Source: Pseudonocardiales bacterium
GTDB lineage: Bacteria > Actinomycetota > Actinomycetes > Mycobacteriales > QHCA01
Direction of reading: 5' to 3'
Assembly: GCA_040003795.1 (NCBI GenBank)
Contig: JBDUBV010000001.1
Location: 1 to 45,692, forward strand
DNA length: 45,692 bases
Part shown: positions 17,701 through 34,863 of the stretch, in pieces
Position numbering within the stretch: the stretch's first letter is position 1
How the letters are laid out: the number at the start of each line of letters is the position of its first letter
Position numbers and translations under genes: made by a program
The notes under the pieces: generated by a model
What the model was told of the DNA's origin: nothing
The model's database searches: none
The model's input: the letters and a program-made list of their open reading frames with translations, nothing else

Positions 17701-19199
17701 GGCGGCCAGATGGTGGACGCGGGCGGGGCGAGAAGGACGTAACCGTTGTCGTGCAGCACGGTGCGCCAGCCGACGCCCACCAGCAGTGGCACCAGCGGAG
17801 CGTCGGAGGGCAGCACGGCGGCGTCCGGGTCGAGGTCCTGCACGGTCGAGCGCCAGCCGGGGCGGCCGTCCGTCATCGCGAAGTAGCGGCTCAGAAAGGT
17901 GCGACCGTAGCGGTCCGCGCGCCCGTCCACGGCCACCCGCACCGAGGGTCCCGCCGACGTGGCGAGGTAGCCGCCGATGTCGTAGTCGTTGAGGACCCGG
18001 ATCGGCGCGGGCTCCGAGCGCAGCGCCGCGGCGATGTGGGACGGCGCCCACAGCGGTGTTGTCGGCTTGGTGAGCGTTGCGACCAGCAGGGCCATCACCG
18101 TTGTACCGACGAGCGCAGCCACCGCAGCGGTGGGAACCCGTCTGATGGTGCGGCCCCCCGAGCGGCCGTCCAGGACTCGCGCAGTCACCGGCGCGATCAG
18201 GATGCAGGCCGGGCCGAGGTTGCGCCAGGCAAGCCCGGCATAGCCCGCCACCGCGAGCACCCACAACACCTCCGATCGGCTCGGCCTGCTGGCGCTGACG
18301 GCCCATCCGACGACGACGATCACGAGCAGCGCGACAAAGCCCCAGGCGAACGGCCGGTCGAGTCGAGGGGCGAGCCACTCCGCGAGGTGACCGTGCGCCG
18401 CAGCGCTGACCTGCCACGGCGCCAGCAGCAGTCGAGGCCCCACCGGCGTGAACATCGCGACGACGGGCGACAGGGCGGCGCTGAGGATCAAGGCGCGTTG
18501 GTCGGGAGCGCCCAGCCGGTCACCGTCGAGCCGACGGGCTACCACGACGACGAGCAACGTGACTGGGACCAGCACCCACAGGCCGTGGGTCAAGGCCCAC
18601 AGCCATGTCACCGTGAGCAGCACCGGGACCGGAGGCTGCCCGACGTGGCGGCGGGCCCGGTCACACACCCAACTGAGCCAGACAACGAAGACCATCGAGG
18701 CCAGCTGCGGCCGTTCCTCGAGGAAGGGATACACGCTGAGGCAGGCCAGGCAGAACACGATGGCCTGACTGCTCGGGCGGTGCCGGCGCAGCAGCACGTG
18801 CAAGCCGCCCAGCAGGGCGAGCGTCCCGGCCAGCTCCAGGAGCACCACGCCGCGGTCGCCGCCGATGCGGTGCACTGCAGCGAGCGCGATGTCGGCCGCC
18901 CAGGAGCTGGTGGACCACACCGTTGCGGGCCTGGTGTAGGCCCAGGCGTCCGGCAGGAGCGGGTGCCCGTGTCGCAGGATTTGCTCGCCCACAGCAACGT
19001 GCAGGAAGACGTCGTGGTCGTGGATCGGCCCGATGGAGGTGGCCGCCGTCAGGGTCCCGGCGACGATCGACAGCAGCGTCCACGCCGCGGGTCCTCGGCG
19101 TTGGCCGCTGGCGCCGCCGGGGCCGATGGCTGCTGGGGCAGCGTCGGCATCGGCATTGGTGCGTTGCGCGGGGCGCCAGGCTGGGGCCGTTCTGGTCAC
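17697..19199 (-). CDS. polytopic membrane protein with a DxD loop and a C-terminal soluble domain (GT-C-like, paralog B)
   Basis: 500 aa with a GTG start at 19199. It has the same layout as paralog A: IHDHDVFLHVAVGEQILRHGH after TM1, LWALTHGLW, and a C-terminus VLNDYDIGGYL...VDGRADRYG...PDAAVL...GWRTVLHDNGYVLL. It starts 73 nt downstream of flp1. Confidence 0.6.
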   Translation of the reverse strand: MTRTAPAWRPAQRTNADADAAPAAIGPGGASGQRRGPAAWTLLSIVAGTLTAATSIGPIHDHDVFLHVAVGEQILRHGHPLLPDAWAYTRPATVWSTSSWAADIALAAVHRIGGDRGVVLLELAGTLALLGGLHVLLRRHRPSSQAIVFCLACLSVYPFLEERPQLASMVFVVWLSWVCDRARRHVGQPPVPVLLTVTWLWALTHGLWVLVPVTLLVVVVARRLDGDRLGAPDQRALILSAALSPVVAMFTPVGPRLLLAPWQVSAAAHGHLAEWLAPRLDRPFAWGFVALLVIVVVGWAVSASRPSRSEVLWVLAVAGYAGLAWRNLGPACILIAPVTARVLDGRSGGRTIRRVPTAAVAALVGTTVMALLVATLTKPTTPLWAPSHIAAALRSEPAPIRVLNDYDIGGYLATSAGPSVRVAVDGRADRYGRTFLSRYFAMTDGRPGWRSTVQDLDPDAAVLPSDAPLVPLLVGVGWRTVLHDNGYVLLAPPASTIWPP

Positions 19200-19230
19200 C
19201 GCGCGCCCCCGTCTTCTGCCCAGGTCCTGC

Positions 19231-19256
19231 GCAAGCCGGTCAGCTGTCCGGCTTGC
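19231..19256 (-). terminator. stem-loop 17 nt after the flp1 stop (9-bp perfect stem, 8-nt loop)
   Basis: GCAAGCCGG (19231-19239) and CCGGCTTGC (19248-19256) are exact reverse complements. No U-tract follows, so this is more likely an attenuator or mRNA-stabilising hairpin than a full intrinsic terminator. Confidence 0.5.
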
Positions 19257-19272
19257 CGGACCCCCGTCGCGC

Positions 19273-19470
19273 TCAGCAGCCTGGGGCTCCGCCTGAAGCG
19301 TTCTTGAGGCTGTTACACGTCGTCCCGAAGACGCCGGAGATGGTGCTGCCGAACAGGAACAGAACAGCCACGATCACCGCTGCGATGGCGGCAACGAGCA
19401 GGGCGTATTCCACCGCTGAAGCACCCCCATCCCCGCGAGTGAGGAATCGGATGTGCGTGCGAGCCAGCAT
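19273..19470 (-). CDS. flp: Flp family type IVb pilin (prepilin), copy 1
   Basis: 65 aa: MLARTHIRFLTRGDGG/ASAVEYALLVAAIAAVIVAVLFLFGSTISGVFGTTCNSLKNASGGAPGC. It has the Flp G/xxxxEY processing motif plus a hydrophobic helix. An AGGAGA Shine-Dalgarno lies upstream. Confidence 0.9.
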   Translation of the reverse strand: MLARTHIRFLTRGDGGASAVEYALLVAAIAAVIVAVLFLFGSTISGVFGTTCNSLKNASGGAPGC

Positions 19471-19514
19471 CGGTTCTCCTAGTTGTGAAGACGGGCAAAT
19501 GAAACCCTCGGTCG

Positions 19515-19546
19515 CACGGTCAGGCAGGTTGGCCTGCTCGACCGTG
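19515..19546 (-). terminator. stem-loop 16 nt after the flp2 stop (7 bp + 2-nt mismatch + 5 bp, 4-nt loop)
   Basis: CACGGTCAGGCAGG (19515-19528) pairs with CCTGCTCGACCGTG (19533-19546), with one 2-nt internal mismatch. No U-tract follows. Confidence 0.45.
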
Positions 19547-19561
19547 TGACCGTGAGGAGGT

Positions 19562-19768
19562 TCAGCAGCCCGTGGTACCGCTGGAGCTCTTGATGCTGTT
19601 GCAGGTGGTCTTGAAGACACCTTCGATGGTGCTGCCGAACAGGAACAGGACGGCCACGATGACCGCGGCGATGGCCGCGACGAGCAGCGCGTACTCCACT
19701 GCGGAGGCGCCCTCATCCTGCTTGGTCTTGATCGCGACGAGCAACCGGACGTAGAACTGGGTGAGCAT
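19562..19768 (-). CDS. flp: Flp family type IVb pilin (prepilin), copy 2
   Basis: 68 aa: MLTQFYVRLLVAIKTKQDEG/ASAVEYALLVAAIAAVIVAVLFLFGSTIEGVFKTTCNSIKSSSGTTGC. An AGGAGG Shine-Dalgarno lies upstream. The 29-residue core GASAVEY...GSTI is identical to copy 1. Confidence 0.9.
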   Translation of the reverse strand: MLTQFYVRLLVAIKTKQDEGASAVEYALLVAAIAAVIVAVLFLFGSTIEGVFKTTCNSIKSSSGTTGC

Positions 19769-19872
19769 GCTGTCCTCCTGGGGACCGAGACTGGATGTGC
19801 TGTGCTGCACCCCCCTCGAGAGGCAGCCGCCCATAGGATGCCGGTGCCACGGCCAGGAACACATCGGCTGCC

Positions 19873-19908
19873 CGGGCGGTGAACTTAGTCCATCTGACCT
19901 ATTGACAA
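19873..19908 (-). promoter_or_regulatory. candidate flp promoter in an AT-rich patch
   Basis: On the minus strand: TTGTCA (plus-strand 19903-19908), then 15 nt, then TAAGTT (plus-strand 19882-19887, fits TANNNT). The spacer is short for a canonical promoter, hence the low confidence. This is the only AT-rich stretch between the response regulator stop and flp2. Confidence 0.3.
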
Positions 19909-19923
19909 ACGGGCGACGAGTCC

Positions 19924-20565
19924 CTATGGCGGGGGGGGAGCGCCGCTTTGCAGCAGCCCGAGCCGCAGCGCGGTCATCAGCGCCTGTGCCCGGTTGCCGG
20001 CTCCCAGCTTGCCGTACAGCTTGGAGATGTGCGTCTTGGCCGTCGACTCGCTGATGTAGAGCTTCTTGGAGATGGCCGCCACCGACATGCCCTCGGCGAG
20101 CAGGATCAGCACCTGGCTCTCGCGTTGGGACAGTTGGGGTCCGCTCGGTGCCAGGCGCCGTTTCATCGCCTCCGCCAATTCCGCGGCACTGAAGGCGTTC
20201 GGCGACGCAAAGGCGTGGCGCGCCGCGGCGACGACCTCATCGGCCGGGGACTGCTTGGGAACGAAGGCGGATGCACCGGCGTTGAGCGCGCCGAACAGGT
20301 GCTCATCCCCGGCGTACATAGTCAGAACCACGATCCCGAGGGAAGCCCGTGCAGCCCGGAGCTGGCGGGTGATGTCAAGGCCGCTGCCGTCCGGAAGCTG
20401 GATATCGGTGACGACGACGTCGGGCTGCAATTCGGTGGCCGTGCGCAGTGCCTCTGCGACCGTGCCCGCTTCGCCCACGACGTGGAAGTCGCCGGCCCGC
20501 TCGAACGCACGGCGCAGGCCCTGCCGGATCAGCTCGTGATCATCGATCAGAAGGACGGTGGGCAC
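19924..20565 (-). CDS. NarL/LuxR family response regulator
   Basis: VLLIDDHELIRQGL...DVVVTDIQLPDGSG...VVLT (receiver with intact acidic pocket), then LSQRESQVLILLAEGMSVAAISKKLYISESTAKTHISKLYGKLG (GerE HTH). GTG start at 20565. Confidence 0.9.
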   Translation of the reverse strand: MPTVLLIDDHELIRQGLRRAFERAGDFHVVGEAGTVAEALRTATELQPDVVVTDIQLPDGSGLDITRQLRAARASLGIVVLTMYAGDEHLFGALNAGASAFVPKQSPADEVVAAARHAFASPNAFSAAELAEAMKRRLAPSGPQLSQRESQVLILLAEGMSVAAISKKLYISESTAKTHISKLYGKLGAGNRAQALMTALRLGLLQSGAPPPP

Positions 20566-22192
20566 TGCCTACTCCCTGCCTGACGCCGTTACCGGCGGCC
20601 AGCGTACGCCCTGGGGACGCCAAACCGAGCTGCACGTGCACCCGGGTGCCGTGCGGCTGCCGGGCGCCGACTTCGAGCGCGGCTCCCAGCCTGGCCGCTC
20701 TCTCGCGCATGATCGCCTGACCGTAACTGTCCTGTCGCCGCTCGGTGGGCATGCCCACCCCGTCATCCTCGACGACAATGGTCGCGTGGGCCGGCTGCAC
20801 GGTCACGCTGACCCAGAGATTGCTGGCACGGGCATGCTTGCGGGCGTTCGTCACCGCCTCCTGCGTGATCCGGAACAGCTCCGCCTCAGTCGCCGCGGGT
20901 AGCCTCCGGGTGGACTCGTCCAATGTGATGTGGACGGTCAGCCCGGAACTTGCCCCTATCGTCCGTACGTAGGCTGAGATCGCGGCGCCCAGCCCGCCGT
21001 GCGGGTCGATGTCGCTGCGAAGGTCGAACAGCGAGAGGCGCAACTCTGAAATGATCCGGGTCACCTCGACGCGCAACTGGCCAAGGGCTGTCCGAGCGTC
21101 GTCGGCACCCTCAGGGGTCTCGGCCAGCGCGTGGTCTATGCCGTAGCCCACGATCACCAACTCTTGCGCGATCCCGTCATGGATCTCGCGGGCGACCCTC
21201 TGGCGCTCCTCGGTAGTGGCGAGGTCTCGGACCTCGTCGAACAGCAGGGCGGTCTCGAGCCGGAGGGCCGCGTCGGCGCAGGCCGCATTCATGCGCCCGA
21301 CCGCCGCCAGATCGGGGGCTCGATCGCGCCCCTGCAAGCCGACCAACCCCACCGTGCGAATGCCGACGAGGAGCGGAAAGATGAGCAGCCAGCCGTCGCC
21401 GTCTACGGCGGTCAACCGGTGCGCCTGCGCGGCCCACGCGTCTGCGAACAACGAGTCACCGGTGATTTGGACGTCCCACTGCTGCGCCGCGTCCGCGTCG
21501 CCTCCGAGCTGCACAAGTCGTTCTCCCCCCGTGCGGGCGAAGACGGCGACGCTGTCGGCCGAGGCGCGCAGCTTGAGGTCATCGGCGAGCTGGGTAGAGA
21601 TGCTTACCGGGTCAAGGGTGCCGGGCAGCTGACGAGCGACACTGCGCAGCTGGGTGAGCAGCCGGTAGGCGGTCCCGAACAATGGCTGGTCCACCGTCGG
21701 CTGCAGCCTCAACAGTCGCCGGGACCATGCGGCCACCAGACCGGCGGCCAGGGCGATGACCACCCCCTGGCCAACGTTGTCCAGGTAGGCCACGTCGGTC
21801 AAGCGGTCTGTGGCGGCCCCGGCGGCCAGCAGGATCGCCGCGCCCAGCCCGGTCAGAATTGTCGCGTCGATCGCCCCGGAGAACAGTCCGGCGGCGAGCA
21901 CCGGCACGGCCAGGAGCAGGAAGAAGGCTCCGGTTGCCCCCTGGGTCAGCAGGACAGCGGCACAGATGACGCTGACTTCCGCAGCGCGGGCAAATCGTGC
22001 GGTGAGCGACTCCTGCGGCAGTCGAACGGGCGCCGCTGCCACCGCTAAGAGGACGATGACGCCCGCTACGGCAGGTCCGAACGAGTGTCCTGCGGCGGCC
22101 ACCACGAGGCAGAGCACCAGCAAGACGGCCCGGAAAATCCAGACGACGCGCTGGGGCCTGGCCTGAATGGTCAGTGCTGCCTGTGACGCCAC
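20540..22192 (-). CDS. membrane sensor histidine kinase (TM region + GAF-like + HisKA_3 + HATPase_c)
   Basis: About 5 TM segments, a central GAF-like region, and the H-box ERQRVAREIHDGIAQEL. The ATPase blocks are TQEAVTNARKHA and VEDDGVGM. Its 3' end overlaps the regulator start by 26 nt. Confidence 0.9.
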   Translation of the reverse strand: MASQAALTIQARPQRVVWIFRAVLLVLCLVVAAAGHSFGPAVAGVIVLLAVAAAPVRLPQESLTARFARAAEVSVICAAVLLTQGATGAFFLLLAVPVLAAGLFSGAIDATILTGLGAAILLAAGAATDRLTDVAYLDNVGQGVVIALAAGLVAAWSRRLLRLQPTVDQPLFGTAYRLLTQLRSVARQLPGTLDPVSISTQLADDLKLRASADSVAVFARTGGERLVQLGGDADAAQQWDVQITGDSLFADAWAAQAHRLTAVDGDGWLLIFPLLVGIRTVGLVGLQGRDRAPDLAAVGRMNAACADAALRLETALLFDEVRDLATTEERQRVAREIHDGIAQELVIVGYGIDHALAETPEGADDARTALGQLRVEVTRIISELRLSLFDLRSDIDPHGGLGAAISAYVRTIGASSGLTVHITLDESTRRLPAATEAELFRITQEAVTNARKHARASNLWVSVTVQPAHATIVVEDDGVGMPTERRQDSYGQAIMRERAARLGAALEVGARQPHGTRVHVQLGLASPGRTLAAGNGVRQGVGSAHRPSDR

Positions 22193-22338
22193 GGCGCCAC
22201 CGTACGCCGCCGTTGGCCTGCCGCGAGGCCGCGGGCCGGTCAGCGGGTCGAGGTGATCGGTGTCGAATGGATGGCCGGCCTGCCACCGGGGTGACGCGGG
22301 GTGGGCAAGCGCCTGTGCTGATCGTTGATCAGCCCCTG

Positions 22339-23691
22339 CTAATTCCGGTACTCCCCGAGCTTTCGAGCCAGACGTCTTACCAGCACGGCCGTGGTCAACA
22401 GTCGAGCGGCCTCGGCGCAGAGGCCCAGCACTGCCTCGAGGTCGCGCTTGACGAAGGGGGGAGCATCTCGGCCGATCAGGACCAGGCCGGCGACTCGGGC
22501 GATCGGTACACCGATGATGTGCCGGCAGGCAGCAAGTGGCGCATCGGCGAGGCGACCACGCACGATGTCGGAGTCGGTCACCATGAACGCGTGCCCGGCC
22601 AAGACGACGTCACGGACCAACCAGTGCCCCTCACCTAGGCGCGCTCGCCGTTCCGCGCCGCTCAGGCCCTTGCTGGCGTACACCAGCCAGGTCTGCTCGT
22701 CGGGCAGGATGAGGCATCCCGCGTCGCCACCCGAACGATCGAGTGACTCAGCCAGCACCACGTCAGCGGTCTCCCCTACGCCAGCCATCTGATCGGAGCG
22801 TTCCAGCAGCCGCTGGAGGAGCTCATCGAGGGCCAACGGCGGTGCGGCGACCGGGACAGCGGGTCGCGGCGCCCTTGCCGTCGGGAAGATTCGCCGGGGT
22901 CGCTCACGAGGCGCAGGAGCCGAGGAGACCAGTGCAGCGACCGGCTTGGCCGCAGGTGCCTGCTTGCGCGGTGCCTGCTGCGGCCTTGGCGCCTCAGCCG
23001 GGGTCGCCTGACGCGGTGAGCTGGCAGATGCCGGATGAGCCACCGTGAGCGGTTCCGGGCGGCGGCCACTGTGCCGCTGTGCCCCGGCGAACGATGCATC
23101 GAAGCGGGCAACGACGGGCGCAAGGGGGAGGCCGAGTGCCGTTGCGATCGCGCGTACGAGGTCGCGGGCAAACTCGACGTCATCACAACCGGAGAAGTCG
23201 TCATCCTCGATCTGGCCGACGGTCGCCTGCAGAATCAGGGTACGGCGGGACACGTCGGCCAAGGACCATCCCTGCTTCTCCCGCGCGCCCTTGAGCAAGG
23301 TGCCGATCGAGTCAGCCTCCGGCGCCCCGATCGCGACCGCGGGTGTACTGGCACCGAGAGCATCGTGCACCGCGGTGAGAAGCGCCCCCTTGGACAGCGG
23401 GAGCTGCAAGAAGGTCACACCCGACAGCCGTAGTAGGCGTACGCGATCCCACAGTGCCTCACCGTCGGTAGCCACGATGACAGGAAGCGTCAAGCCGTCT
23501 CCCTGCAAGCCCTGGAGAACTGCCTCAACCGCCACCGGGTCGCCGACGTCCAGGATCGCCGCATCGGCGACCGCCAACCCAGCGCGCCATTCGTCCGCGG
23601 CATCGGGCCGCAGGACCACGAGCTCGTAGGGCTCCGAGGCAAGTGCCATGGCTAGGGCCGCGTTGCGGGTGACAAGCAATAGTCGACTCAT
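22339..23691 (-). CDS. pseudo-receiver / HTH (XRE/RodZ-like) / Pro-rich linker / GAF domain regulator
   Basis: 450 aa from the ATG at 23691. MSRLLLVTRNAALAMA...AAILDVGD...PVIVATDG...FLQLPLS is a receiver fold lacking the DD pocket and the conserved Lys. LLKGAREKQGWSLADVSRRTLILQATVGQIEDDDF is the HTH. A roughly 110-aa Pro/Ala-rich linker follows, then a C-terminal GAF-like domain (DAGCLILPDEQTWLVYASKG...GVPIARVAGLVLIGRD). Confidence 0.7.
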   Translation of the reverse strand: MSRLLLVTRNAALAMALASEPYELVVLRPDAADEWRAGLAVADAAILDVGDPVAVEAVLQGLQGDGLTLPVIVATDGEALWDRVRLLRLSGVTFLQLPLSKGALLTAVHDALGASTPAVAIGAPEADSIGTLLKGAREKQGWSLADVSRRTLILQATVGQIEDDDFSGCDDVEFARDLVRAIATALGLPLAPVVARFDASFAGAQRHSGRRPEPLTVAHPASASSPRQATPAEAPRPQQAPRKQAPAAKPVAALVSSAPAPRERPRRIFPTARAPRPAVPVAAPPLALDELLQRLLERSDQMAGVGETADVVLAESLDRSGGDAGCLILPDEQTWLVYASKGLSGAERRARLGEGHWLVRDVVLAGHAFMVTDSDIVRGRLADAPLAACRHIIGVPIARVAGLVLIGRDAPPFVKRDLEAVLGLCAEAARLLTTAVLVRRLARKLGEYRN

Positions 23692-23916
23692 ACTGGTCTC
23701 GCCACCGTGATGGCAGGCCGTAGGTTCGCGGCCGGCCTCCGCTGCACTGGGCCCCCTCGCCTGGCGATCTTCACCTGTCGCGTCCGGCGTGCGAACGCTC
23801 AAGGGCCGGATGCCTGCTCTCGACAGGGATTGTGAGCGGCAGTTGGGGATCCGGCAAGCTCAGAGCGGTGAACGGGCGGCCCTCGCTGCGCCGCTAGCGG
23901 GAAAGCGATCAGGCGC

Positions 23917-24861
23917 TCATTTTCCGACTCCGCCGAAGGTGTGGATGATGTTGATGACCGCTGGCCCCAGAATGACGATGAACAGCGCCGGCAGGATGGT
24001 GAAGATCAACGGGAAGAGGATCTTGACTGGCACTTTCTGAGCCTGTGCTTCGGCGCGCTGGCTGCGCTTCAGCCGCATCTCGTGGGCCTGGATGCGCAGG
24101 ACGTTGGCGATGGGGATGCCAAAGGAATCCGCTTGAATCATGGCGGTCACGAAGCCGCGGAGTTCCGGAAGGTCGGTGCGCTCGCCGAGACCACGCATGG
24201 CGTCTGAACGTCCCACGCCGATCTGCATCTCCTGGAGGACTCGGAAGAATTCTTCGGCCAAGGGCCCGACAGTGTTCCGGGCCACCTGGGAGAGCGCCGA
24301 GTCGAATGCCAAGCCGGCCTCGACGGAGATCGTGAGCAGGTCCAGGGCATCCGGCAACTCCTTGCGCATGCGGTCCCGCCTGTTGTATGCGCGCTGGTAG
24401 AGCCAGAGATCGACGGCAAAGAACCCGATGACCGTCACGATCGCGGTCACCCCGATGAACACCAGGGCGCGCAGGCCCAACAGCGCCGAGAGGGCAACGC
24501 CCAGAATCAGGCCGGCGAGCAGGCCTAGCGTCTTGAAGGCCAGCACCCGGTCGGGGTCCCAGCGAGCCGGGCTTCCGGCGAGATCGAGCTTGTGGCGGTA
24601 TTTCTCGGTCTGCCCGCCCGGCGTGAGACGACGCCCGAGCCTGCTCAGCCGCACGAGTGCCGGGCCGACGACCCGCTCGTCGAAGCCACGGTCGGTGTCG
24701 CGTCGAAGTGCGTTGGGTGTGGACTCCAGCGCGCGCACGGCCGCGAGGGAGCGGCCCACCTGCGAGCGCTCCGCTGTGAACACTCCGATCGTGGTCAGCA
24801 GCAGGGTCAGGGCGAGAAAGATCGCACCGAGCCCACCCAGAAGCAGGAGCTGGGGTGTCAT
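23917..24861 (-). CDS. tadC: Tad pilus platform protein TadC (T2SS F family)
   Basis: 314 aa with N-terminal TMs. The T2SSF domain reads LPDALDLLTISVEAGLAFDSALSQVA...MQIGVGRSDAMRGLGERT, with C-terminal TMs. Its start is 1 nt after the tadB stop. Confidence 0.9.
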   Translation of the reverse strand: MTPQLLLLGGLGAIFLALTLLLTTIGVFTAERSQVGRSLAAVRALESTPNALRRDTDRGFDERVVGPALVRLSRLGRRLTPGGQTEKYRHKLDLAGSPARWDPDRVLAFKTLGLLAGLILGVALSALLGLRALVFIGVTAIVTVIGFFAVDLWLYQRAYNRRDRMRKELPDALDLLTISVEAGLAFDSALSQVARNTVGPLAEEFFRVLQEMQIGVGRSDAMRGLGERTDLPELRGFVTAMIQADSFGIPIANVLRIQAHEMRLKRSQRAEAQAQKVPVKILFPLIFTILPALFIVILGPAVINIIHTFGGVGK

Positions 24862-24862
24862 G

Positions 24863-26811
24863 TCAGACCTCGACCCTGACGACCTTGCGCAGCCAGAACG
24901 CGCCTACCGTCAACTGAACGGCCATCACGATCAGCAGGAGAATGCCGATCGGATCGGTGTAGAGCACCCGGATGTAGTCGCCTCGGACAAGGAGCAGATA
25001 GATCGAGAACAACACCGGCATCGCGAACAGAATGGCTGCGGAGAGCTTGCCCTCGGCGGACAGCGACAGAACCTGTCGACGGATGCGCTCGCGCTCCCGC
25101 AGAGTTGCCGCCACCGTGGTCAGCACCTCGGCCAGGTTGCCTCCGACCTCGCGTTGGATCCGGACGGCCATGACCACCCACGCGAAGTCCTTGCTCTTCA
25201 TGCGTGCGGCGATCGCCTCCATGGCGTCCTCCACCGGGAATCCCAGGCGGGATTCGACCAGCGCCTTCTTGAACTCACCGGCCATCGGCTGGCTGCCCTC
25301 CTGCACCACTGCGTCGACCGCCTGAGGGAAGGAATACCCGGCCGAGAGGCTGCCGGCCAGCAGTTGGAGCACGTCGGGCAGCTGATTGAGGAAGGCGGCC
25401 CGGCGGCGGGACTCCTTGAAGTTCAGGTAGCCGATGGGCACCCCGACCCCGATGAGCAGACCGACGAGTGTGGCGGCCAGGCTGCCACCGCTGAGAAGCA
25501 GCAACAGCACCGGAAGCGCGACCGCCACGCCCATGTGGATGAGCAGGAATTCCGCTGGCTTGAGCGGTACACCGCCCGCCTCCAGGCGCCGGGCCAGGCC
25601 CGACTCGAAGTTGCGCTGGGCGACGACGCGGCCGGCGAACTCAACGGCGCTGCGGGCGACGGCGTTGTTCCCGAGGGCGGTCGTCTCGCGCTGTGTCTCT
25701 TGGGCATTGCGGCCGGTCAAGGTGTAGATGGAAAGCCTGCGATGGACCTGCCCGTTCCTTCCGGGGGAGCGCCCGAACAGCACCACCAGCAACAGCAGCA
25801 GGAGACCGGCGAAGAGGGCTCCCACGGCGACATAGAGGCTGGTGCGGCTGGCCAGCGGGCCGACCGGGAGATCGACGGGCTGGGGCCCCTGCGCCGCCGG
25901 CTTTGCTTTCGCCTTGGTCGTCTTGGCGCTGCCGAGGCGGACGTAGCTGGAGTCGCGCAGCAGGTCGCCCCCGGCTCGGGCGGTGACTTCGACGGTCTGC
26001 AACTGCCCTGCGAGGTCGGCAGGGATGGGCACGCTGATGGCGAGCTGGTTCGACACATCCTGACCTACCTTGGCGAATACCCGGGTAATCTGGTAGGCCT
26101 TGGTGGCCGGGTACACCTGCCCGCGACCGCTCGCGGCAATTTTTGCCAGCGTCGCCTTGTCGGCCTGCGCGGTGAAGGCCACGGCGTCCACGGTGGCCCC
26201 GCTTGCCCCTGCTGCCGCGAGGACCTTCGTAAGCGTGGTCTTGCTGCCCGTGTCCGCGCCGTCACTGAGCAGTAGCACCCGTCGGGAGCCCGTCTTGCCA
26301 AGTACCGTAAGTCCAGCCTGAAGCCCGTCATACAGTGCCGTATCGCCGACAGCGGATAGGGCGTCGATAGCGCTGTTCACCGCGACCTTGTCGGCGGTCG
26401 GGGCGATCCGGACCGACGGCACCTTGGCGAAACTGACCAGGCCAACCCGCACGCCGTCAGGGACCCCCGCGACAAAGGTTTTGGCGGCCGCCTTGGCCCC
26501 AATGATGCCATCACCCTTCATGCTGCCGCTGGTGTCGATCACCAGCACGACGCTGATCAACGCCGTGGCGGCCGGCTGTGTGGACAGCGATTCTGCTTTC
26601 GCCGGGAGGTACCGAGACCCGACCTTCACTTGAACAGTCGCGGCGTCGATCATGGCACCGTCGGGCAGGTCGCTGCCACCGAAGATGATGGCCAGCTTGC
26701 CGTCGGCGCTGCTGATCTGCGCGATGTGACCGCTGGCCGCACTCGCGGGGCCGGCCAAGAGCAGGATCGCGCAGAAGCCGGCTGCTGCCACGGCCAACCA
26801 CCGCCATTTCC

Positions 26812-26815
<4 letters not shown>
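24863..26815 (-). CDS. tadB: fusion protein: signal peptide + extracytoplasmic vWA domain (complete MIDAS) + TM + TadB (T2SS F family)
   Basis: 650 aa from the GTG at 26815, in a GTGA overlap with the cpaF stop. The signal peptide is WRWLAVAAAGFCAILLLAGPASA. MIDAS elements are VVLVIDTSGSM, GDTALYDGL and VLLLSDGADT. The TM is SLYVAVGALFAGLLLLLLVVLFG. A standard-length T2SSF domain follows (LPDVLQLLAGSLSAGYSFPQAV...). Confidence 0.85.
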
Positions 26816-28193
<1,378 letters not shown>

Positions 28194-28197
<4 letters not shown>

Positions 28198-29390
28198 GTT
28201 CGTGCCTTCCTGCGCAGCAGCCCGCGCCGGTCTGTCCGGAGGTGGCCGGGGACGGCCGAGCGGTGCGTGGTGTGGTCGACGACGTGCCGCTCGCCGAACT
28301 GCCTGATGGCCTCGCTGACGGGGTGGCGGGGTGAGTCGAGGACCAATGGCACCCCGCGGTTGACCGAGGCGGGCACGTCGCGCGAGGAGGGGATCTGGCA
28401 GGCGATCGGCACCTTGAGCGTCTTCTCGACGTCCGCCAGTGCCAGCCCGACCTTGGAATCGGCGCGGTTGAGAACGACCCGCCACTTCTCCCGAGGGTAG
28501 TTGAGCAGGTCCAGCGTCTCCAGGGTGAGCTTGAGGTTCTTCAAGGCCGGGATGTCCAGTGTGGCCAGCAGAGCCACGACGTCGCTCTGGTCGAAGGCGG
28601 CGAGCACATGGTCGGTGAACGCCGGCGGGGTGTCCACCACTACATAGGGGAACATCCGTTTGAGCAGATGCAGCACCTTGGCGACAGTTGCGGCCGGGAT
28701 GGTCTCGGCCAGCCCTGGCTCCACCGGCGCCACGAGCGTGCTCAGACCGGGAGAGTGTGGGGTGATCAGCCCCGCAACTGCTGCCTCGTCCAAGGTGTCC
28801 GACATCGGCACGGCATCGGCAAGGGTGTGCGCCGGAAAGAGCTGCAGGGTAATGGCGACATCGCCGAAGGCCAGATCGAGGTCGACCAGGCACACCTCGC
28901 GGCGGCCCCCGTCAGCCAGGGCTGCTGCCAGGTTGGTAGCCATCGTCGTCTTCCCACAGCCGCCCTTGGCGGCGAAGACCGTGACGAGGCGCCCGGAGTC
29001 GATCTCGTCCTCTTGACTGGCCTCTGCCTGGTCGCGAAGCGCGTCGGTGATGCGCAGCGACCGGTGTGCGGCGGCTCGCAACTCGTTGGGGTCGGCGTCC
29101 GCCACGACGTCACGCACGCCCGCGCGCAGGGCCTCGGTGAGCGTCACGGCATCGACGGTGTGCCTGACCAGGATGATGCCGACCTCGGGCCGGACAACCC
29201 GAAGTGACTGAGCGAGCGCGAAGGCTTCCGACTGCTCGACACTCGGGCCGATCATGATGGCCTGCAGGCCCGCCTCGTCGGCGAGTTGCCGCCGCAGCGA
29301 GTCGACGCTGCCGAGCACCCGCCACCCGGCGCCGAGCGTGGCGCGCAACGTCTCGGCAACGACCTGGTCGTGCTCGACGATGTAGCTCAT
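28194..29390 (-). CDS. tadZ: TadZ/CpaE-like protein: atypical receiver domain + MinD/ParA-type ATPase
   Basis: The N-terminal receiver-like domain lacks a clear acidic pocket. The deviant Walker A is VFAAKGGCGKTTMATNLAAAL, followed by VCLVDLDLAFGDV and YVVVDTPP. Confidence 0.85.
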
Positions 29391-29403
29391 GGCAGCTCCT
29401 TCC

Positions 29404-30174
29404 TTACCTGAAGAGGTTTTGCAGCGTCACAGCCGTGCCGGGTGTCAGGGTCGCGGTCGGACTGAGCAGGACGAAGTACACCTGCCCCTGCTGTGAGGCG
29501 AACACGAGTTTCGCGGCGTCCTGCTGGTTGAGGGCTAGCGTGAGGAGGGCCCTCGGCAACTGCTGCTCCGGGTTGGCGCCGGCGGCGGTCTTGCCGTCGG
29601 TCTGCCCGTCCGTGACGGCGCTTCCGCCGGCGGTCGCGCCGACCGCGATCACCTGTGCCTTGGGCAGGAGCAGCTGCGTGAAGGTTGCGGTCCCGCCCCG
29701 CGTCGCCCCGCCGGAGGGCGAGAGTGTTACGAAGACGCCAACGCTGCTGCCGGGCGTGACGAATCCTGCGACCCGAGCCGGATCCGCGACTTGCACGCTG
29801 GCTGCGACCATGCCAGGGGGCAGCGGCAGGACCGATGTCTGCGCCTGGCTGCCGAACTTGACTGCAAGGATCTGCTCACCGGGATAGATGGTCGACAGCG
29901 CGACCTTGCCGTTGAGAGTTGACAGGGCGGCCGGGCCCAGTGCACCGGGCGCCGCAGCAGCCCGGGTTATCGTCTTTTGATCGAGCATCCCCTTCTCGGC
30001 TGCCTGTGCCGCCGACGTCCCGACCGATATCTGCGTCTTGGCGACCAGCACCTCGACGGGGTTTTGACCGCGCAGGGCTCGAGCGTTCGCCGTGCTGGCG
30101 TAGAGGAACACCAGTACGGTGCCAACTGCTGCCACTAGAAGCGCAGCAAGCAGTAGCAGAGTTCGCCTACCCAT
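29404..30174 (-). CDS. cpaB: Flp pilus assembly protein CpaB/RcpC (SAF domain)
   Basis: N-terminal TM (RRTLLLLAALLVAAVGTVLVFLY), then VEVLVAKTQISVGT (SAF-like) and GEQILAVKFG, then a beta-rich C-terminus. This is the typical CpaB layout. Confidence 0.85.
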   Translation of the reverse strand: MGRRTLLLLAALLVAAVGTVLVFLYASTANARALRGQNPVEVLVAKTQISVGTSAAQAAEKGMLDQKTITRAAAAPGALGPAALSTLNGKVALSTIYPGEQILAVKFGSQAQTSVLPLPPGMVAASVQVADPARVAGFVTPGSSVGVFVTLSPSGGATRGGTATFTQLLLPKAQVIAVGATAGGSAVTDGQTDGKTAAGANPEQQLPRALLTLALNQQDAAKLVFASQQGQVYFVLLSPTATLTPGTAVTLQNLFR

Positions 30175-30195
30175 ATGAGATCTCCAGAATCATTC

Positions 30196-32070
30196 TTAGT
30201 ACGGACGGTCCTTCAATGTACAAGTCGACAACCATGCGCCCGGTGGGCAGGTGACGTGTACCAGAATGCCGATGCGCGGACCCGATCCCACGAAGGGAAT
30301 CGTGGCGCCGCCGGGATTCGCAATCCAGTCCAGGCTGAACACGTACGCTTTGATGGCCGTCACCTGAGTACCGTTGTTGTTGGTCTCAAAAGACTCCACG
30401 AAACTCCCCATGAATCCCGTGATGGGATAGAAGCCATTCGCCTGGTTGCCGTCGATATCCAACGTCGGCACCAGGAAGAACTGTGGGCAGTCGTAGATTT
30501 CTTTCTTCACGACTCCCGCGGTGGGGGTGCCGTTGATATTGTTCTCGAACTGCTGAAGCGGGATGGTGAGAAAATCTTGCAGCGAGTTGTTCTCGATGTT
30601 GGTACGGGCCTTGACAGTCCCCATACTACATGGCGGGATGGGCGGATTCTTGAGACGTGGCGGTAGTTTAGGGTTGTTGATGCCGTCGAGGAGGGCCTGG
30701 GTCGCCGATGAAAGCTTATTGCCGTTTTCCACATCGGCACAGTTGAATCGATTGTCGGAGCCGTCGTCGATAATGGCGCCGGCTATTGGCGTAGAACCGA
30801 CCAGGCATTGAGTATTCGTGGGAGGGAACGGCTTCGGGAAGATACCCGGAACGTATTTGGCGCCAAGGATGACGTTCTGCTCCAGGGCAGCAGGATTCGG
30901 GTAACCCTTGAGGTCCAGGTAACCGAAGTTGCCGGTCGCTGAGGCGCAGGGGTCGACGAGGTAGGTGAACTGGTCTGCCGCAGTGATCGCTGACGGCGTG
31001 CCGTTGACCGTGACGATGACATCGACCGTCCCCGCGCCCGTCGGCGCGATCGCCGTCAGGGACGTGCTGCTGGTAACCGATACACCCGTGGCGGCGTTGC
31101 CTCCGAAGGAGACCGTGACAGTGCCCGGTGAGAAGCCCGTACCGGTGATGGTCACACTGTCACCCGGTTTGCCGCTGTTCGGACTTACGTTGGTGACAGT
31201 GGGGGCCGCGACCGCGTTGTAGGTGAATGTGGCCGTGGCCGTAAACTGTCTGTTGATCCCGTTACCGGTCTGCACCTGCACAGAGAAGGTGGCCGGGCCA
31301 GTCTGGGCAGGGCTCGTGAATCGCACATGGGTGGCATCGACAAAGGTGGTCGTCACAGGCGCGCCATTGACAAGGACCATGCTCTGTCCACCCCCCGACC
31401 CCACAAAGGCTGTCCCCGTACCAGTCACCGTGACGACCGTCCCGCCGGCTGCTGGACCGTTCGAGGGCGATAGGGAGATTGGTTCGTTCGCGAGCAGCGC
31501 TGAGCGCATCGCGGCGTTCTTGCCGTTGGTGTTGTCGTGGATGCAGTAGAGCCCGCCGGTGCCGCCGGTGACGCCGAAGGGGAGGATCTTGCCCTTCGCC
31601 GGGCTACCAACTGTCGCCTCGGCAGCCGCGTGCACGGTGCTCGATGAGAAGCCCATGATGCCGGCGAGCCCGAAGTTGACGGTGCGCCGGGGCACGATGA
31701 CCCAGATCCTCTGGCCCGTTGTGCCCGTGGTGACCGTGTTGCCAGTGGAGTCGGTGACGATGATCTCGCCGTTGGCGTAATCAGGACCGTCGTTGTCGCT
31801 GTAGCAGGCGGGACAGGTGGCGTATGTCTGACCGGCCACAGGGTTCTTCACCAGGTAATCGAGCGCCTTCGCGCGAGCTTCGGCCACATCCGGCAGGCCT
31901 TGCGCGCCGGCCAGGGCTGCCAGGTCAGCGGCGCTCTGCGTGATTCGCTTGCGGGCCTGCATGTTGCCGAGGTCGACCCCCAGCGCACCGATGCCGAACA
32001 GGACGACCGCGAGCAAAGCGCTGAGCACCGCGATGGCACCCTCGTCGCGGCGAAGCCTGCAGGAAGTCAT
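30196..32070 (-). CDS. TadG-like pseudopilin/adhesin: Tad N-terminal domain + two IPT/TIG domains + Cys- and Asn-rich C-terminal domain
   Basis: 624 aa from the ATG at 32070, in an ATGA overlap with tadE. RDEGAIAVLSALLAVVLFGIGALGVDLGNMQARKRITQSAADLAALAGA is a TadG-type N-terminus. GGTVVTVTGTG... and GDSVTITGTGFSPGTVTVSFGG... are two IPT/TIG repeats. The last ~250 aa have no family I recognise. Confidence 0.75.
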   Translation of the reverse strand: MTSCRLRRDEGAIAVLSALLAVVLFGIGALGVDLGNMQARKRITQSAADLAALAGAQGLPDVAEARAKALDYLVKNPVAGQTYATCPACYSDNDGPDYANGEIIVTDSTGNTVTTGTTGQRIWVIVPRRTVNFGLAGIMGFSSSTVHAAAEATVGSPAKGKILPFGVTGGTGGLYCIHDNTNGKNAAMRSALLANEPISLSPSNGPAAGGTVVTVTGTGTAFVGSGGGQSMVLVNGAPVTTTFVDATHVRFTSPAQTGPATFSVQVQTGNGINRQFTATATFTYNAVAAPTVTNVSPNSGKPGDSVTITGTGFSPGTVTVSFGGNAATGVSVTSSTSLTAIAPTGAGTVDVIVTVNGTPSAITAADQFTYLVDPCASATGNFGYLDLKGYPNPAALEQNVILGAKYVPGIFPKPFPPTNTQCLVGSTPIAGAIIDDGSDNRFNCADVENGNKLSSATQALLDGINNPKLPPRLKNPPIPPCSMGTVKARTNIENNSLQDFLTIPLQQFENNINGTPTAGVVKKEIYDCPQFFLVPTLDIDGNQANGFYPITGFMGSFVESFETNNNGTQVTAIKAYVFSLDWIANPGGATIPFVGSGPRIGILVHVTCPPGAWLSTCTLKDRPY

Positions 32071-32519
32071 AGGTTCACGTTGCATGCGTAGGGTGATCCT
32101 GACGTGACTGAGCCGAGACTCTCAACGCGCGAAACCGCCTTCTGAGTGGGCGAGCCGGTGATGAACGGCACGAACGGGAACCCGAAGGTCGTGGGTGCGT
32201 AGGTGACCGTGGCCGTAGCGTCCGCTCCTTGAGTCGCCGTGCCGCCGGGAGTGAACTCGATCTTCACGTTGGTCACCTTGACGCCGGCTGCCGCAGCCTG
32301 CACGGAGTTCGCCAGCGTCGTGCAGTTGTTCACCCCGAGGGAAGCGAGGCGAGCGCCTTCGCGAGTGCCTGCGCTCGCTCCCTGCAGTTGGAAGAAGTAG
32401 TAGCCGTACTGGATGACGGCGAAGACCAGGGTCAGAAACAGCACGAGCACCAACGCAAACTCCACAGCCACCGCCCCGTCCGCTCTACGGCACCGAGGGC
32501 GAACTCGGGACGACATCAC
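32067..32519 (-). CDS. tadE: TadE-like minor pilin
   Basis: 150 aa: RRADGAVAVEFALVLVLFLTLVFAVIQYGYYF is the TadE N-terminal motif. The start is GTG 32519 or ATG 32516, behind an AGGGGGG Shine-Dalgarno. Confidence 0.8.
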   Translation of the reverse strand: MMSSRVRPRCRRADGAVAVEFALVLVLFLTLVFAVIQYGYYFFQLQGASAGTREGARLASLGVNNCTTLANSVQAAAAGVKVTNVKIEFTPGGTATQGADATATVTYAPTTFGFPFVPFITGSPTQKAVSRVESLGSVTSGSPYACNVNL

Positions 32520-32659
32520 ACCCCCCTAACAACATGCGGCCCCCGCAGGATGAGCAACGCTCCGTAAGCGAGGCCGTCAAAGGATGACACGCCCGCGGCG
32601 GTGACGGTAGCGCTCCGGTGTTCAATGACCCGTCCGGTGTGCCTATCTAGTCCGTTCGG

Positions 32660-34162
32660 CTACCCGCTAGCCACCGTTTGGACCACTCTCGCCCGGACCG
32701 GCAGCGATTTATACGTATTCACCGTGCGAACCAGGGAGCGCCCGCCAAGGAGCAGCACCGGCACTCCGATCAGGATCGAGAGGATCCAACTGCCCGCATA
32801 AGCGCCAGCGCTGACCGACATGCCGATCAGGGTGGTGCTGACGGCCAGCCGGGCGCTGTAGATGGCCATCGATCCGGGCGGCGCGGGAGTGTCCCTGGCG
32901 CCACGCAGGTCGGCGCGGTGTGGATGGCTTACCGAGAGCTTCATGCAGGTCGCCGTCACCCACAGGGCGCACGCTGCGCTGGCAACCACCAGCGCCGCGA
33001 TCTGCGGCCCCGTAGGTGCGGTGGTCGCCCGGATCGCCGCCGCCACGACCACCGCGACGATCGCCAGCAGACAGGTTTCGAGGACCACCCAGGCCTTGGC
33101 CACGGCTGCCAGGGCCGGCCGGTGGGGCAGGGAGGCCAGCCACAGCGCTCCTGACGCGTCCAGGCAGAACGCGTTGACGCCGAACAGCAGCCCGGTGCCA
33201 GCGGCGACCAGCCCGGGCAGCAACACCAGCGAGTTCCAGGACACACCCAGGCTGACCGCCGCGAGAGCGGGTAGGAGCATCAGGACGAGCGCGCCGCGGC
33301 GAAGTGACGGCGTCCGCCACACACTCGATCGGTCGGTCCTGCGCAAAGCACTCAACGGCCCCTGTGCCGGTGAACGGCGCCGTACCGGTCGATCATTGCG
33401 TCGAATGCCCACTCCGGGCCGGCGCAGCGCCCACGTGCACGTGCGTACACCCAGGAGTGGGAGCACGGCAGCGACCGCCACGAGCTCCAGGAAGCCGCGG
33501 GCCCAGGAAAGGTAGAGCCCCTGTCCGCCCTGCAGCACCGTGACCACCACGGTCGTCGTGGGTAGCCGGTCCAGCACCCGGCCGGTGTAACCCTGACGCA
33601 CGGCCACGGCCGTCGCCAGGATCAGCCCAGCGGCCAGCGACCAGATCACCGCCCGGCCGGCGCGTGACTGGCGGATGCCGATGACCGCCCAGGCGATTGT
33701 CTGGCCCAGCACCGTGATGAAGGCCACGTAGGCGTACGTCGTCGCGAGCGACAGCGCCATCAGGTACGGCTTGTGGGTGACAGCGCCGGTGAGGGTGGTC
33801 AGCAGCAGCAACTGGGAGAGCCAGGCGAGGTTGAGCGGCGCCACCGCCACCGAGGCCAGGAAAGTCGTCGCGGGCCGGATCGGGTAGCCGACCAGCTGAT
33901 CGGCGGGGAACAGCTCGTTGCCGCCGCCCGCGGCCAGCGGGGCCACCAGGGCGAGCACAGCGAAGCCGGCGAACGCCGTTGGGGTGAGCAGCCGGGCGTT
34001 GGAGATCAGCCGCGGCGGGACCAGGCGGCTCGCCAGCGCGGCAACGATGATCAACAGCACCACACCGGCCAGCAGCAGGAGCAGCCCGGTGCGCGTGCGC
34101 CCGGACCGCACCATCTGCCAGCGCAGGGCCACGAGCGCGCGCAACTGCCCGAGGGAAATCAC
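32660..34162 (-). CDS. ABC transporter permease-like polytopic membrane protein
   Basis: 500 aa from the GTG at 34162, in a GTGA overlap with the ATPase stop. It has at least 10 hydrophobic segments and no motif I can place in a named permease family. Confidence 0.65.
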   Translation of the reverse strand: MISLGQLRALVALRWQMVRSGRTRTGLLLLLAGVVLLIIVAALASRLVPPRLISNARLLTPTAFAGFAVLALVAPLAAGGGNELFPADQLVGYPIRPATTFLASVAVAPLNLAWLSQLLLLTTLTGAVTHKPYLMALSLATTYAYVAFITVLGQTIAWAVIGIRQSRAGRAVIWSLAAGLILATAVAVRQGYTGRVLDRLPTTTVVVTVLQGGQGLYLSWARGFLELVAVAAVLPLLGVRTCTWALRRPGVGIRRNDRPVRRRSPAQGPLSALRRTDRSSVWRTPSLRRGALVLMLLPALAAVSLGVSWNSLVLLPGLVAAGTGLLFGVNAFCLDASGALWLASLPHRPALAAVAKAWVVLETCLLAIVAVVVAAAIRATTAPTGPQIAALVVASAACALWVTATCMKLSVSHPHRADLRGARDTPAPPGSMAIYSARLAVSTTLIGMSVSAGAYAGSWILSILIGVPVLLLGGRSLVRTVNTYKSLPVRARVVQTVASG

Positions 34163-34863
34163 GCCAGCAACGCCCGGTAGCGGGCGGCTCCGGCTTCGCC
34201 GGCGAGCTCGGCGGCGGGGGAGGCGGCGACGACCGAGCCGCCCCGGAGCACGACCGCCTCGTCGCACGCCTCCACAGCCAGGGCTAGTAGGTGCGTGGAC
34301 ACCAGTACCGCCGCACCGTCCAGGCGGGCCTCGGAGATCACCAGCATCGCGGCCTCGACACCGAGGGGGTCGACGCCGTCGAAGGGCTCATCCAGCAACA
34401 GCACGTCAGGGTTGTGGAACGCCGCCAGCACCACCGACATCCGGCGGCCCATGCCGTGGGAGAAGGTCGCGGTCGGCCGGTCGGCGACGGCGGCGAGGTC
34501 GAAGCGTTCGAGCAGGTCGCGCGCACGGGGCTCCCAGCCGCCGGGCATGTTCCGCAGCCGAGCTGCCAGCGCCAGGTGCTCCCAGGGCGTGGCCCGGGGG
34601 ATCAGGCCGCCCACGTCGGGGCAGTAGCCGACCCGGGCCCGCACACCGGAGGGGTCGCGGGCGGCGTCGATGCCGGCGACCCGGATCGAGCCCGCCGAGG
34701 GCGGTTGCACGCCGGCCAGCACACGCAGGGTGGTGGACTTCCCGGCGCCGTTGCGACCGACCAGGGCCACCGACGCACCCGCGGCCACGGTCAGGTCGAA
34801 GGCCGTGACAGCCCGGACCGCACCGAAGTTGACGTCCAGTCCGCGGACCTCTACCAGAGACAC
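34159..34863 (-). CDS. ABC transporter ATP-binding protein
   Basis: Walker A GRNGAGKSTTL, Q-loop, the signature-like FSHGMGRR, Walker B LLLDEPFDGVD and H-loop STH. Confidence 0.9.
   Translation of the reverse strand: MSLVEVRGLDVNFGAVRAVTAFDLTVAAGASVALVGRNGAGKSTTLRVLAGVQPPSAGSIRVAGIDAARDPSGVRARVGYCPDVGGLIPRATPWEHLALAARLRNMPGGWEPRARDLLERFDLAAVADRPTATFSHGMGRRMSVVLAAFHNPDVLLLDEPFDGVDPLGVEAAMLVISEARLDGAAVLVSTHLLALAVEACDEAVVLRGGSVVAASPAAELAGEAGAARYRALLA

Follow-up and report, generated by a model that had tools for sequence, protein, structure and literature searches.

In type IV filament machines, the platform is usually regarded as lying almost wholly in the membrane and the cytoplasm, and how a platform communicates with its fibre on the outside is an open question. 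One locus in a Pseudonocardiales bacterium (assembly GCA_040003795.1) raises this question in an acute form: why would TadB, a platform protein of the Tad/Flp pilus machine, carry a large von Willebrand factor type A (VWA) domain outside the membrane? The stretch of DNA that we analyzed, hereafter the window, comprises the first 45,692 nucleotides of contig JBDUBV010000001.1, and the protein is encoded at positions 24863-26815 of its minus strand by a single gene of 650 codons plus stop, which we call VWA-tadB. A preliminary description of the sequence had pointed out the fusion and a metal ion-dependent adhesion site, or MIDAS, in its VWA domain. Sequence comparisons show that the fused form prevails in a large TadB clade spread across Actinomycetota. 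Arguing from the same comparisons and by analogy with other Tad machines, we propose, with a probability somewhat below one half (about 0.45), that the platform-tethered MIDAS ectodomains dock a conserved extracytoplasmic Tad component as an accessory collar.

The domain scan that the preliminary description had suggested placed both parts of the fusion above the curated Pfam cut-offs. VWA_2 (PF13519; 2.7e-16, 60.5 bits against a cut-off of 27), VWA (PF00092; 8.4e-15, 55.9 against 23.8) and VWA_3 (PF13768; 35.7 against 27) all matched across residues 88-242 (89-242 for VWA_2 and VWA), and a single copy of T2SSF (PF00482; 6.4e-18, 65.4 against 25.2) matched residues 483-608. The signal peptide ending in ASA and the VWA domain with its full MIDAS (DTSGS at residues 94-98, GDT at 157-159 and SDGAD at 184-188) were found just where they had been described. 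The signal peptide has an RKWR n-region, a 16-residue hydrophobic core and a cleavage site at A24-S25-A26/A27; its AxA pattern recurs family-wide, and it contains neither a lipobox nor a twin arginine. There is no PF13400 'Tad' domain or prepilin motif in the protein, and NCBIfam has no dedicated model for it, the top matches being generic VWA families far under their cut-offs, plus the archaeal platform protein UpsF.

Hydropathy located a first transmembrane (TM) helix, TM1, at residues 326-347 and two hairpins, one at 423-464 and the other at 592-641; the loops predicted to face the cytoplasm are rich in K/R. This is the five-TM layout reported for the TadB of Micrococcus luteus (PMC4322843), and the neighbouring TadC opens directly with its TM. 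Given that the F part shares this layout with ordinary TadB and with the neighbouring TadC, the VWA domain would have to lie outside the cytoplasm, and, as the cytoplasmic ATPase is what the T2SSF domain has to face, residues 27-325 could only be extracytoplasmic. The sole self-consistent topology that we can predict thus agrees with the one first suggested, with the VWA domain outside the membrane and the T2SSF helical domain in the cytoplasm; signal peptide, five-TM layout and AlphaFold2 model all support it. Pfam, hydropathy and AlphaFold2 also bore out the Lys/Pro linker, the TM helix near 326-347 and the T2SSF domain that follows. Across the family, the linker is a tether of 26-34 residues with a semi-conserved GPxPV.

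We considered whether the fusion could be an artefact, either of two genes joined by a wrong start, a frameshift or an assembly chimera, or of a neutral accretion in decay. The gene starts with a GTG at 26815 that shares a 4-base overlap (GTGA) with the TGA stop of the upstream tadA and is preceded by a GAGGGG Shine-Dalgarno-like motif; no in-frame stop occurs between 26815 and 24863 on the minus strand, and a single base separates its own stop from the start of tadC. By these signals VWA-tadB is translationally coupled to both tadA and tadC. The two halves of the gene, with a GC content at third codon positions (GC3) of 0.82 for the ectodomain and 0.87 for the F part, both have the codon-position GC typical of coding DNA. 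The same single open reading frame (ORF) recurs in more than 200 proteins from independent assemblies and isolate genomes, with the MIDAS complete in 96% of members. What speaks for an artefact is that the module is absent from a few relatives and that the VWA part is split by frameshifts in one related locus, L033, but this locus comes from a long-read metagenome-assembled genome (MAG) in which the tadA and tadC frames are also disturbed. The artefact is effectively refuted already, and we give it next to no credence. The lack of an in-frame stop, the GTGA shared with tadA, the uniform GC3 and the conservation of the ORF as a whole led us to reject separate VWA and TadB genes or a wrong start, in keeping with the initial view of a single gene; there is no downstream start that splits it.

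Some details of the gene call deserve mention. The longest ORF in this place (24863-27520, minus strand) extends out of frame into the upstream gene. The public call of the same protein begins at a GTG eight codons further in, giving 642 residues; we prefer 26815 because the shorter form would lose the positively charged n-region. An antisense ORF of 615 codons (24428-26275, plus strand) was rejected as a real gene, since its GC3 of 0.73 (against 0.77 at first codon positions) marks it as a non-coding shadow ORF, an artefact of high GC. In L033 (6481-11006), several frameshifts break tadA-tadB-tadC and leave VWA fragments in three frames, through either sequencing error or decay of the locus.

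Since VWA and T2SSF both score above their cut-offs, the gene has its place in a tad operon and is coupled to tadA and tadC, and its best homologues, all of about 650 residues with both domains, go by the name 'tight adherence protein B', we regard the product as a genuine TadB, predicted to serve a monoderm-type (secretin-less) actinobacterial Tad/Flp machine. Its F part (residues 326-650) is 45-83% identical to proteins that bear this name. Among the Pfam-scanned ORFs in and next to the tad operon (window positions 17000-34000), there was neither a tadV prepilin peptidase nor a secretin, and actinobacterial tad loci are reported to lack tadV typically (PMC4322843).

How widespread is the fusion? 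The preliminary description had implied that it was rare, and a survey of its spread proved this wrong, showing it to be the dominant form of a large actinobacterial TadB clade. A search with the full-length protein gave 263 matches, of which we inspected the best 120 for architecture. All of these were about 610-920 residues long and combined VWA with T2SSF; those with a name came from Frankiaceae or Mycobacteriales MAGs and were called either 'tight adherence protein B' or else 'type II secretion system F family protein'. To avoid VWA bias, the F part alone was used as a query against 1.84 billion 50%-identity representatives, yielding 19,702 matches at E<=1e-3. The best 150 were inspected; 132 carried a VWA domain, about 10 were plain TadB proteins of 319-350 residues, and the rest were beta-only variants, VWA-only variants or N-truncated fragments.

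At the level of genome loci, for which we took the best 80 in species-representative genomes, the VWA domain lay within the tadB ORF in 74. The carriers include many species of Nocardioides as well as Marmoricola, Kribbella, Aquipuribacter, Knoellia, Phycicoccus, Terrabacter, Intrasporangium, Lentzea and Spirillospora, and VWA-TadB also occurs in Micromonosporaceae and in Acidimicrobiales (Acidimicrobiia) and Coriobacteriia MAGs. Of the other six loci, one is the frameshifted L033, two are cut by contig ends, and three are truly unfused (L044; L049 from Kineosporia; L054 from Kineosporiaceae). A further unfused TadB comes from Nocardioides sp. Kera G14, in a genus where the fused form prevails. 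In a rough neighbour-joining tree of F domains, unfused forms fell at no fewer than five separate places, their nearest neighbours being mostly fused, and from this pattern we read the fusion as an old acquisition that was probably lost repeatedly. Genomes with an unfused TadB may carry a second, paralogous tad locus. The sole candidate outside Actinomycetota, an 'Eubacteriales' MAG (L078), was set aside as probably mislabelled because of its 66% GC and actinobacterial-type synteny.

We modelled VWA-TadB with AlphaFold2 from a 49-sequence family alignment (mean predicted local distance difference test score, pLDDT, 84). The model has beta-strands at residues 28-76 (pLDDT about 87-93), an alternating alpha/beta VWA domain at 87-255 (94-98) and three further strands at 258-293, followed by a disordered linker (299-316), TM1 (324-347), a disordered cytoplasmic stretch (348-377) and an all-helical F part (82-96). 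The preliminary description had reported a beta-rich segment after the VWA domain; strands do follow it, but those at 28-76 in front of it had been missed, and the VWA domain appears to be nested within a small beta-module. This arrangement is suggested by natural variants that lose exactly residues 87-256: in the proteins P0132 and P0175, the signal peptide and the strands on either side are retained. With these residues removed, the window protein aligned collinearly with both across the splice point, at scores of 115 and 153.5 against 50±8 and 54±9 for shuffles (z about 8-11). P0132 (L081:2556-4046) sits between tadA and tadC on its contig and is on that account taken to be a real gene. Two other variants, P0240 and P0254, have the signal peptide and VWA domain without the beta-strands.

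Foldseek matched the model to many VWA structures at probability 1.00. The top matches, over 308-354 columns, were proteins that combine a VWA domain with a beta-sandwich, namely archaeal ArnB (8s05 and 5a8j), a Catenulispora protein from structural genomics (4fx5) and ITIH1 (6fpy), and next came isolated VWA domains, including CMG2, BatB, vWF-A3, Streptococcus sanguinis PilB (7b7p) and Mfa5 (6to1). A family sequence profile run against the PDB retrieved VWA chains only (best 8s05_A, 8.8e-17). We found no solved structure of a TadB-fused VWA ectodomain.

The similarity to adhesin VWA domains such as those of PilB and Mfa5, together with the presence of the window DNA in soil and root metagenomes, would be consistent with a cell-surface adhesin that binds external substrates (soil or root surfaces, or other cells) independently of the fibre, as tip vWA adhesins do. 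A tether of 26-34 residues, however, would keep the domain within about 10 nm of the membrane, beneath the wall; the domain is fused to a polytopic protein that is unable to enter the fibre; and its binding face is conserved rather than diversified. We consider this role very improbable.

Conservation of the metal site speaks more directly to function. In the 49-sequence alignment, D94, S96, S98, T159 and D185 are invariant down to 46% identity. Among family members with a near-complete VWA domain (n=234), the MIDAS is complete in 225, and conservative S/T changes account for five more. Positions conserved in at least 90% comprise D94, S96, S98, M99, T159, L161, D185 and G186 along with further, mostly small or hydrophobic, residues, and Y162, D163, D188 and S191 are conserved at 82-88%. 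Mean identity to the window protein is 0.31-0.45 in the ectodomain, 0.66 in the F part and 0.25 in the linker, the least conserved region. The ectodomain as a whole evolves faster than the F part, and the metal site and its surrounding loops appear to be under strong purifying selection.

A near-invariant metal site in a module joined directly to TM1 of the platform could also work as a divalent-cation sensor or gate, in which Mg2+, Ca2+ or Mn2+ at the MIDAS would shift the ectodomain and, through TM1, bias extension versus retraction or switch assembly on. This would parallel Ca2+ control through PilY1, and a part in mechanosensing and regulation has been ascribed to vWA domains of type IV pilus (T4P) proteins (PMC12607857). 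Yet the linker, about 30 residues long, is disordered and shows little conservation, making it a poor conduit for a conformational signal, and the locus already encodes a two-component system and an HTH-GAF regulator. We regard a sensor or gate as quite unlikely.

Docking at the pilus base is the reading that we favour, given that the module would sit close over the platform, that the MIDAS appears to be under purifying selection and that the module has been lost without loss of the locus. After Sec export and signal-peptide cleavage, an ectodomain of about 270 residues would project from the cytoplasmic membrane's outer face, right over TadB-TadC; sequence and model together suggest that it is held within roughly 10 nm of that face. 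By analogy with the trimer of heterodimers proposed for Caulobacter CpaG/CpaH, each machine would carry three copies inside the CpaB cage. An acidic side chain from a conserved extracytoplasmic Tad component would complete the coordination of the MIDAS metal ion, the likeliest partner being the CpaB ring and the next the Flp/minor-pilin priming complex at the pilus base. The collar so formed would align or retain the fibre base over the platform, in a secretin-less cell that would have neither the outer-membrane parts nor the TadG/CpaL with its vWA domain by which diderms accomplish comparable tasks. Lineages that show little conservation of their TadG-like and TadE-like genes still keep the MIDAS face, which argues for a conserved endogenous ligand. 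Because relatives without the ectodomain exist, it is an accessory rather than a core part.

Several points weigh against docking. The stoichiometry of three copies is taken over from a diderm model, and CpaB and the Flp/minor-pilin complex are candidate partners only. Inter-domain geometry is uncertain in the AlphaFold2 model (predicted template modelling score, pTM, 0.48), and the MIDAS is degenerate in 4 of the 234 members. The unfused TadB proteins of Kineosporia and of Nocardioides sp. Kera G14 indicate that some lineages can do without the ectodomain; fused forms are intermingled with beta-only and VWA-only variants; and since natural variants without the ectodomain exist, it is not essential for core assembly. 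Lastly, the nearest sequence relatives of the VWA domain are generic (BatA/Rv1481-like, CLCA and ITIH) and not pilus-specific.

This last point also bears on the possibility that the VWA/beta module binds a component of the wall (peptidoglycan, a teichoic acid-like or other anionic polymer, or a wall protein) and so acts as an envelope anchor or stator, fixing the platform in the wall zone against the forces of pilus extension and retraction. The closest relatives in sequence are generic membrane-anchored VWA proteins (BatB and Rv1481-like), the module is extracytoplasmic and tethered, and neither a secretin nor any other part for alignment at an outer membrane is present in the locus. MIDAS sites can, moreover, coordinate any carboxylate- or phosphate-bearing ligand. 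Against this, VWA domains are overwhelmingly protein-protein modules, no wall-binding domain (LysM, PG_binding or SLH) is recognisable in VWA-TadB by Pfam, and the MIDAS face is conserved while wall chemistry differs widely among Actinomycetes, Acidimicrobiia and Coriobacteriia. We think an anchor unlikely, though it deserves to be kept in view, and rank it, like the sensor and the adhesin, below docking.

A bolder version of docking would make the platform MIDAS the monoderm counterpart of the vWA tip or priming proteins TadG/CpaL and PilY1, acting from the base instead: it would capture the minor-pilin/Flp complex or latch the CpaB cage, serving as both primer-holder and retraction stop. This is speculative, and we hold it to be rather doubtful. 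If it were true, the platform would be tied to a static ring, so that TadB-TadC would not rotate during assembly, which bears on the long-debated rotary-platform model.

VWA-tadB lies within a tad operon (Table 1). On the minus strand, the order is tadE-like, tadG-like, cpaB/rcpC, tadZ/cpaE, tadA/cpaF, VWA-tadB, tadC, HTH_25-GAF, HisKA_3 kinase, LuxR-type regulator, flp and flp.

Table 1. Features of VWA-tadB and of the tad operon around it, in window coordinates
Feature	Position	Strand	Remarks
VWA-TadB gene	24863-26815	minus	650 aa; GTG start overlaps tadA stop
Sec-type signal peptide, residues 1-26	26738-26815	minus	RKWR n-region, hydrophobic core, ASA/A
Beta-module, N-terminal half, residues 27-86	26558-26737	minus	strands 28-76, pLDDT about 87-93
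VWA domain, residues 87-256, predicted nested in beta-module	26048-26557	minus	pLDDT 94-98
MIDAS loop 1, D94-T-S96-G-S98	26522-26536	minus	D 233/234, S 232/234, S 231/234
MIDAS Thr159	26339-26341	minus	228/234
MIDAS Asp185	26261-26263	minus	230/234
Beta-module, C-terminal half, residues 257-293	25937-26047	minus	
Disordered Lys/Pro-rich tether, residues 294-325 (32 aa)	25841-25936	minus	
TM1 (out to in), residues 326-347	25775-25840	minus	equivalent of ordinary TadB N-terminal TM
Cytoplasmic N-region of F part, residues 348-422	25550-25774	minus	
TM2-TM3 hairpin, residues 423-464	25424-25549	minus	
Cytoplasmic T2SSF helical domain, residues 465-591	25043-25423	minus	Pfam match 483-608
TM4-TM5 hairpin, residues 592-641	24893-25042	minus	
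flp pilin 2, 65 aa	19273-19470	minus	G/ASAVEY
flp pilin 1, 68 aa	19562-19768	minus	G/ASAVEY
HTH_25 + GAF protein, HisKA_3 kinase, LuxR-type response regulator	19924-23802	minus	between tadC and flp
tadC, 314 aa	23917-24861	minus	T2SSF, short N-terminus, without ectodomain
tadA/cpaF ATPase, 461 aa	26812-28197	minus	T2SSE
tadZ/cpaE-like ParA/MinD ATPase	28194-29390	minus	
cpaB/rcpC	29404-30174	minus	N-terminal TM + RcpC domain
TadG-like, minor-pilin-like protein	30196-32085	minus	Tad N-domain (PF13400) + 2 TIG
TadE-like pseudopilin	32067-32519	minus	

The synteny cpaB-tadZ-tadA-tadB-tadC is kept in essentially all complete loci among the 80, with the kinase, the regulator and flp usually next. 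Since most of these loci also have the kinase and its regulator downstream of tadC, this pair is probably dedicated to regulating the pilus genes. By tblastn, CpaB, TadA and TadC were matched always and Flp usually; the TadG-like and TadE-like proteins were matched in only about 15 of the 80 loci.

The two genes for the latter proteins (30196-32519) have a GC content of 0.62 and 0.64 and a GC3 of about 0.77, against 0.66-0.68 and 0.83-0.87 in the rest of the operon, and they are the least conserved parts between related loci. Low GC and poor conservation together suggest an exchangeable adhesin/minor-pilin cassette. The TadG-like protein had been described as carrying IPT/TIG domains in place of a vWA domain, and we indeed found a Tad N-domain and two TIG domains. 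No VWA domain was detected in it by Pfam (E<=1), PDB profile, family hidden Markov model or AlphaFold2/Foldseek, although its AlphaFold2 model is weak (mean pLDDT 61; below 50 at residues 378-459), with the C-terminal third poorly modelled. We found no other VWA ORF of the family type, either in the window or, for each of the 80 loci, in the roughly 9 kb around tadB. A swap of the VWA domain from TadG to TadB, with complementary distributions, is not supported, because Kineosporia has an unfused TadB, a TadG-like protein without a Pfam VWA domain and no family-type VWA within about 9 kb. Nor did we see a fission product, that is, a stand-alone VWA gene beside the unfused tadB, in L044, L049 or L054.

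The tandem flp pilins (19273-19768) are identical in their hydrophobic core, and each ends in a C-terminus rich in Ser, Thr and Gly with a conserved pair of Cys residues, where disulfide and/or glycosylation sites are possible. Immediately downstream of them lies a gene for a 500-residue polytopic membrane protein without a Pfam match (17697-19199, minus strand), which is also found downstream in some related loci (L002, L009, L016 and L033) and might be a putative pilin-modifying (GT-C-like) enzyme. Upstream of the operon are an ABC ATPase (34159-34863) and a 535-residue polytopic membrane protein (32660-34267), the latter accompanying the locus in about a dozen close relatives. Flanking genes are chromosomal housekeeping genes, such as ctaE and trpD. 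As for RNA, the sequence was found in DNA metagenome runs only.

These results describe a large natural family in which the platform bears a conserved, predicted metal-dependent binding domain on its outside, an ectodomain that the current names 'type II secretion system F family protein' and 'tight adherence protein B' hide. Natural variants that lack the VWA domain, the beta-module or the whole ectodomain could serve as ready-made deletion designs, and VWA-TadB offers a handle on the outside contacts of the platform, on pilus priming and retention in secretin-less actinobacterial Tad machines, and on platform rotation.

The fusion is abundant in databases and apparently undescribed in the literature. 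No characterised family of this kind emerged from the open-access literature, and the parts consulted of Denise 2019, Imam 2011, Angelov 2015 and the Frankia secretome paper contain no description of it. A survey of type IV filaments covers TadB/TadC fission and TadC loss in Actinobacteria (PMC6668835), and the portion consulted makes no mention of a TadB ectodomain.

Among VWA proteins at large, ArnB, 4fx5 and ITIH1, which combine a VWA domain with a beta-sandwich, align with VWA-TadB over both its VWA domain and its predicted beta-module. Identity in the Foldseek alignments is only 15-16%, and the likeness does not go beyond fold and architecture; ArnB works in the cytoplasm as a regulator, ITIH is secreted by eukaryotes, and in none of the three is there a fusion to a membrane platform. 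BatA/BatB and Rv1481-like proteins share with VWA-TadB a VWA domain flanked by hydrophobic segments (NCBIfam PRK13685, 4e-13; BatB 3ibs, TM-score 0.70 on the target). However, VWA-TadB falls outside the BatA/Rv1481-like family (49.2 bits for PRK13685 against a cut-off of 432), has no MoxR/Bat operon context and has a complete TadB as its C-terminal anchor.

Compared with TadB/CpaG, residues 326-650 of VWA-TadB are ordinary, with one T2SSF domain, five TMs and a gene placed between tadA and tadC. What VWA-TadB adds is a signal peptide and an extracytoplasmic region of about 300 residues (beta-module, VWA and tether), whereas described TadB/CpaG proteins have few residues before TM1, as do Kineosporia TadB, P0149 and P0162. 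In Caulobacter, models of CpaG/CpaH, the TadB/TadC homologues, show three heterodimers forming a trimer at the foot of a cone inside the CpaB cage, and CpaL is predicted to sit with CpaJ and CpaK atop this trimer before assembly and then to move to the tip (PMC13170226, PMC12607857). The MIDAS vWA of diderm Tad systems (Caulobacter, Aggregatibacter) resides on the minor-pilin-like TadG/CpaL (PMC12607857, PMC13170226), as the preliminary description had stated for Gram-negative bacteria. Like TadG/CpaL, VWA-TadB brings a MIDAS vWA to a type IV filament machine, placed close above the platform at least up to assembly; by function, vWA proteins analogous to TadG/CpaL are PilY1 and S. sanguinis PilB. 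TadG/CpaL and these analogues begin with a pilin-like helix and are believed to move out to the pilus tip. VWA-TadB has no pilin-like N-terminus and therefore does not belong to the TadG/CpaL family; it has instead a Sec signal peptide with AxA, and its VWA sequence is nearer to generic VWAs than to TadG. Covalently fixed to a polytopic platform protein, its VWA domain would be unable to leave the membrane.

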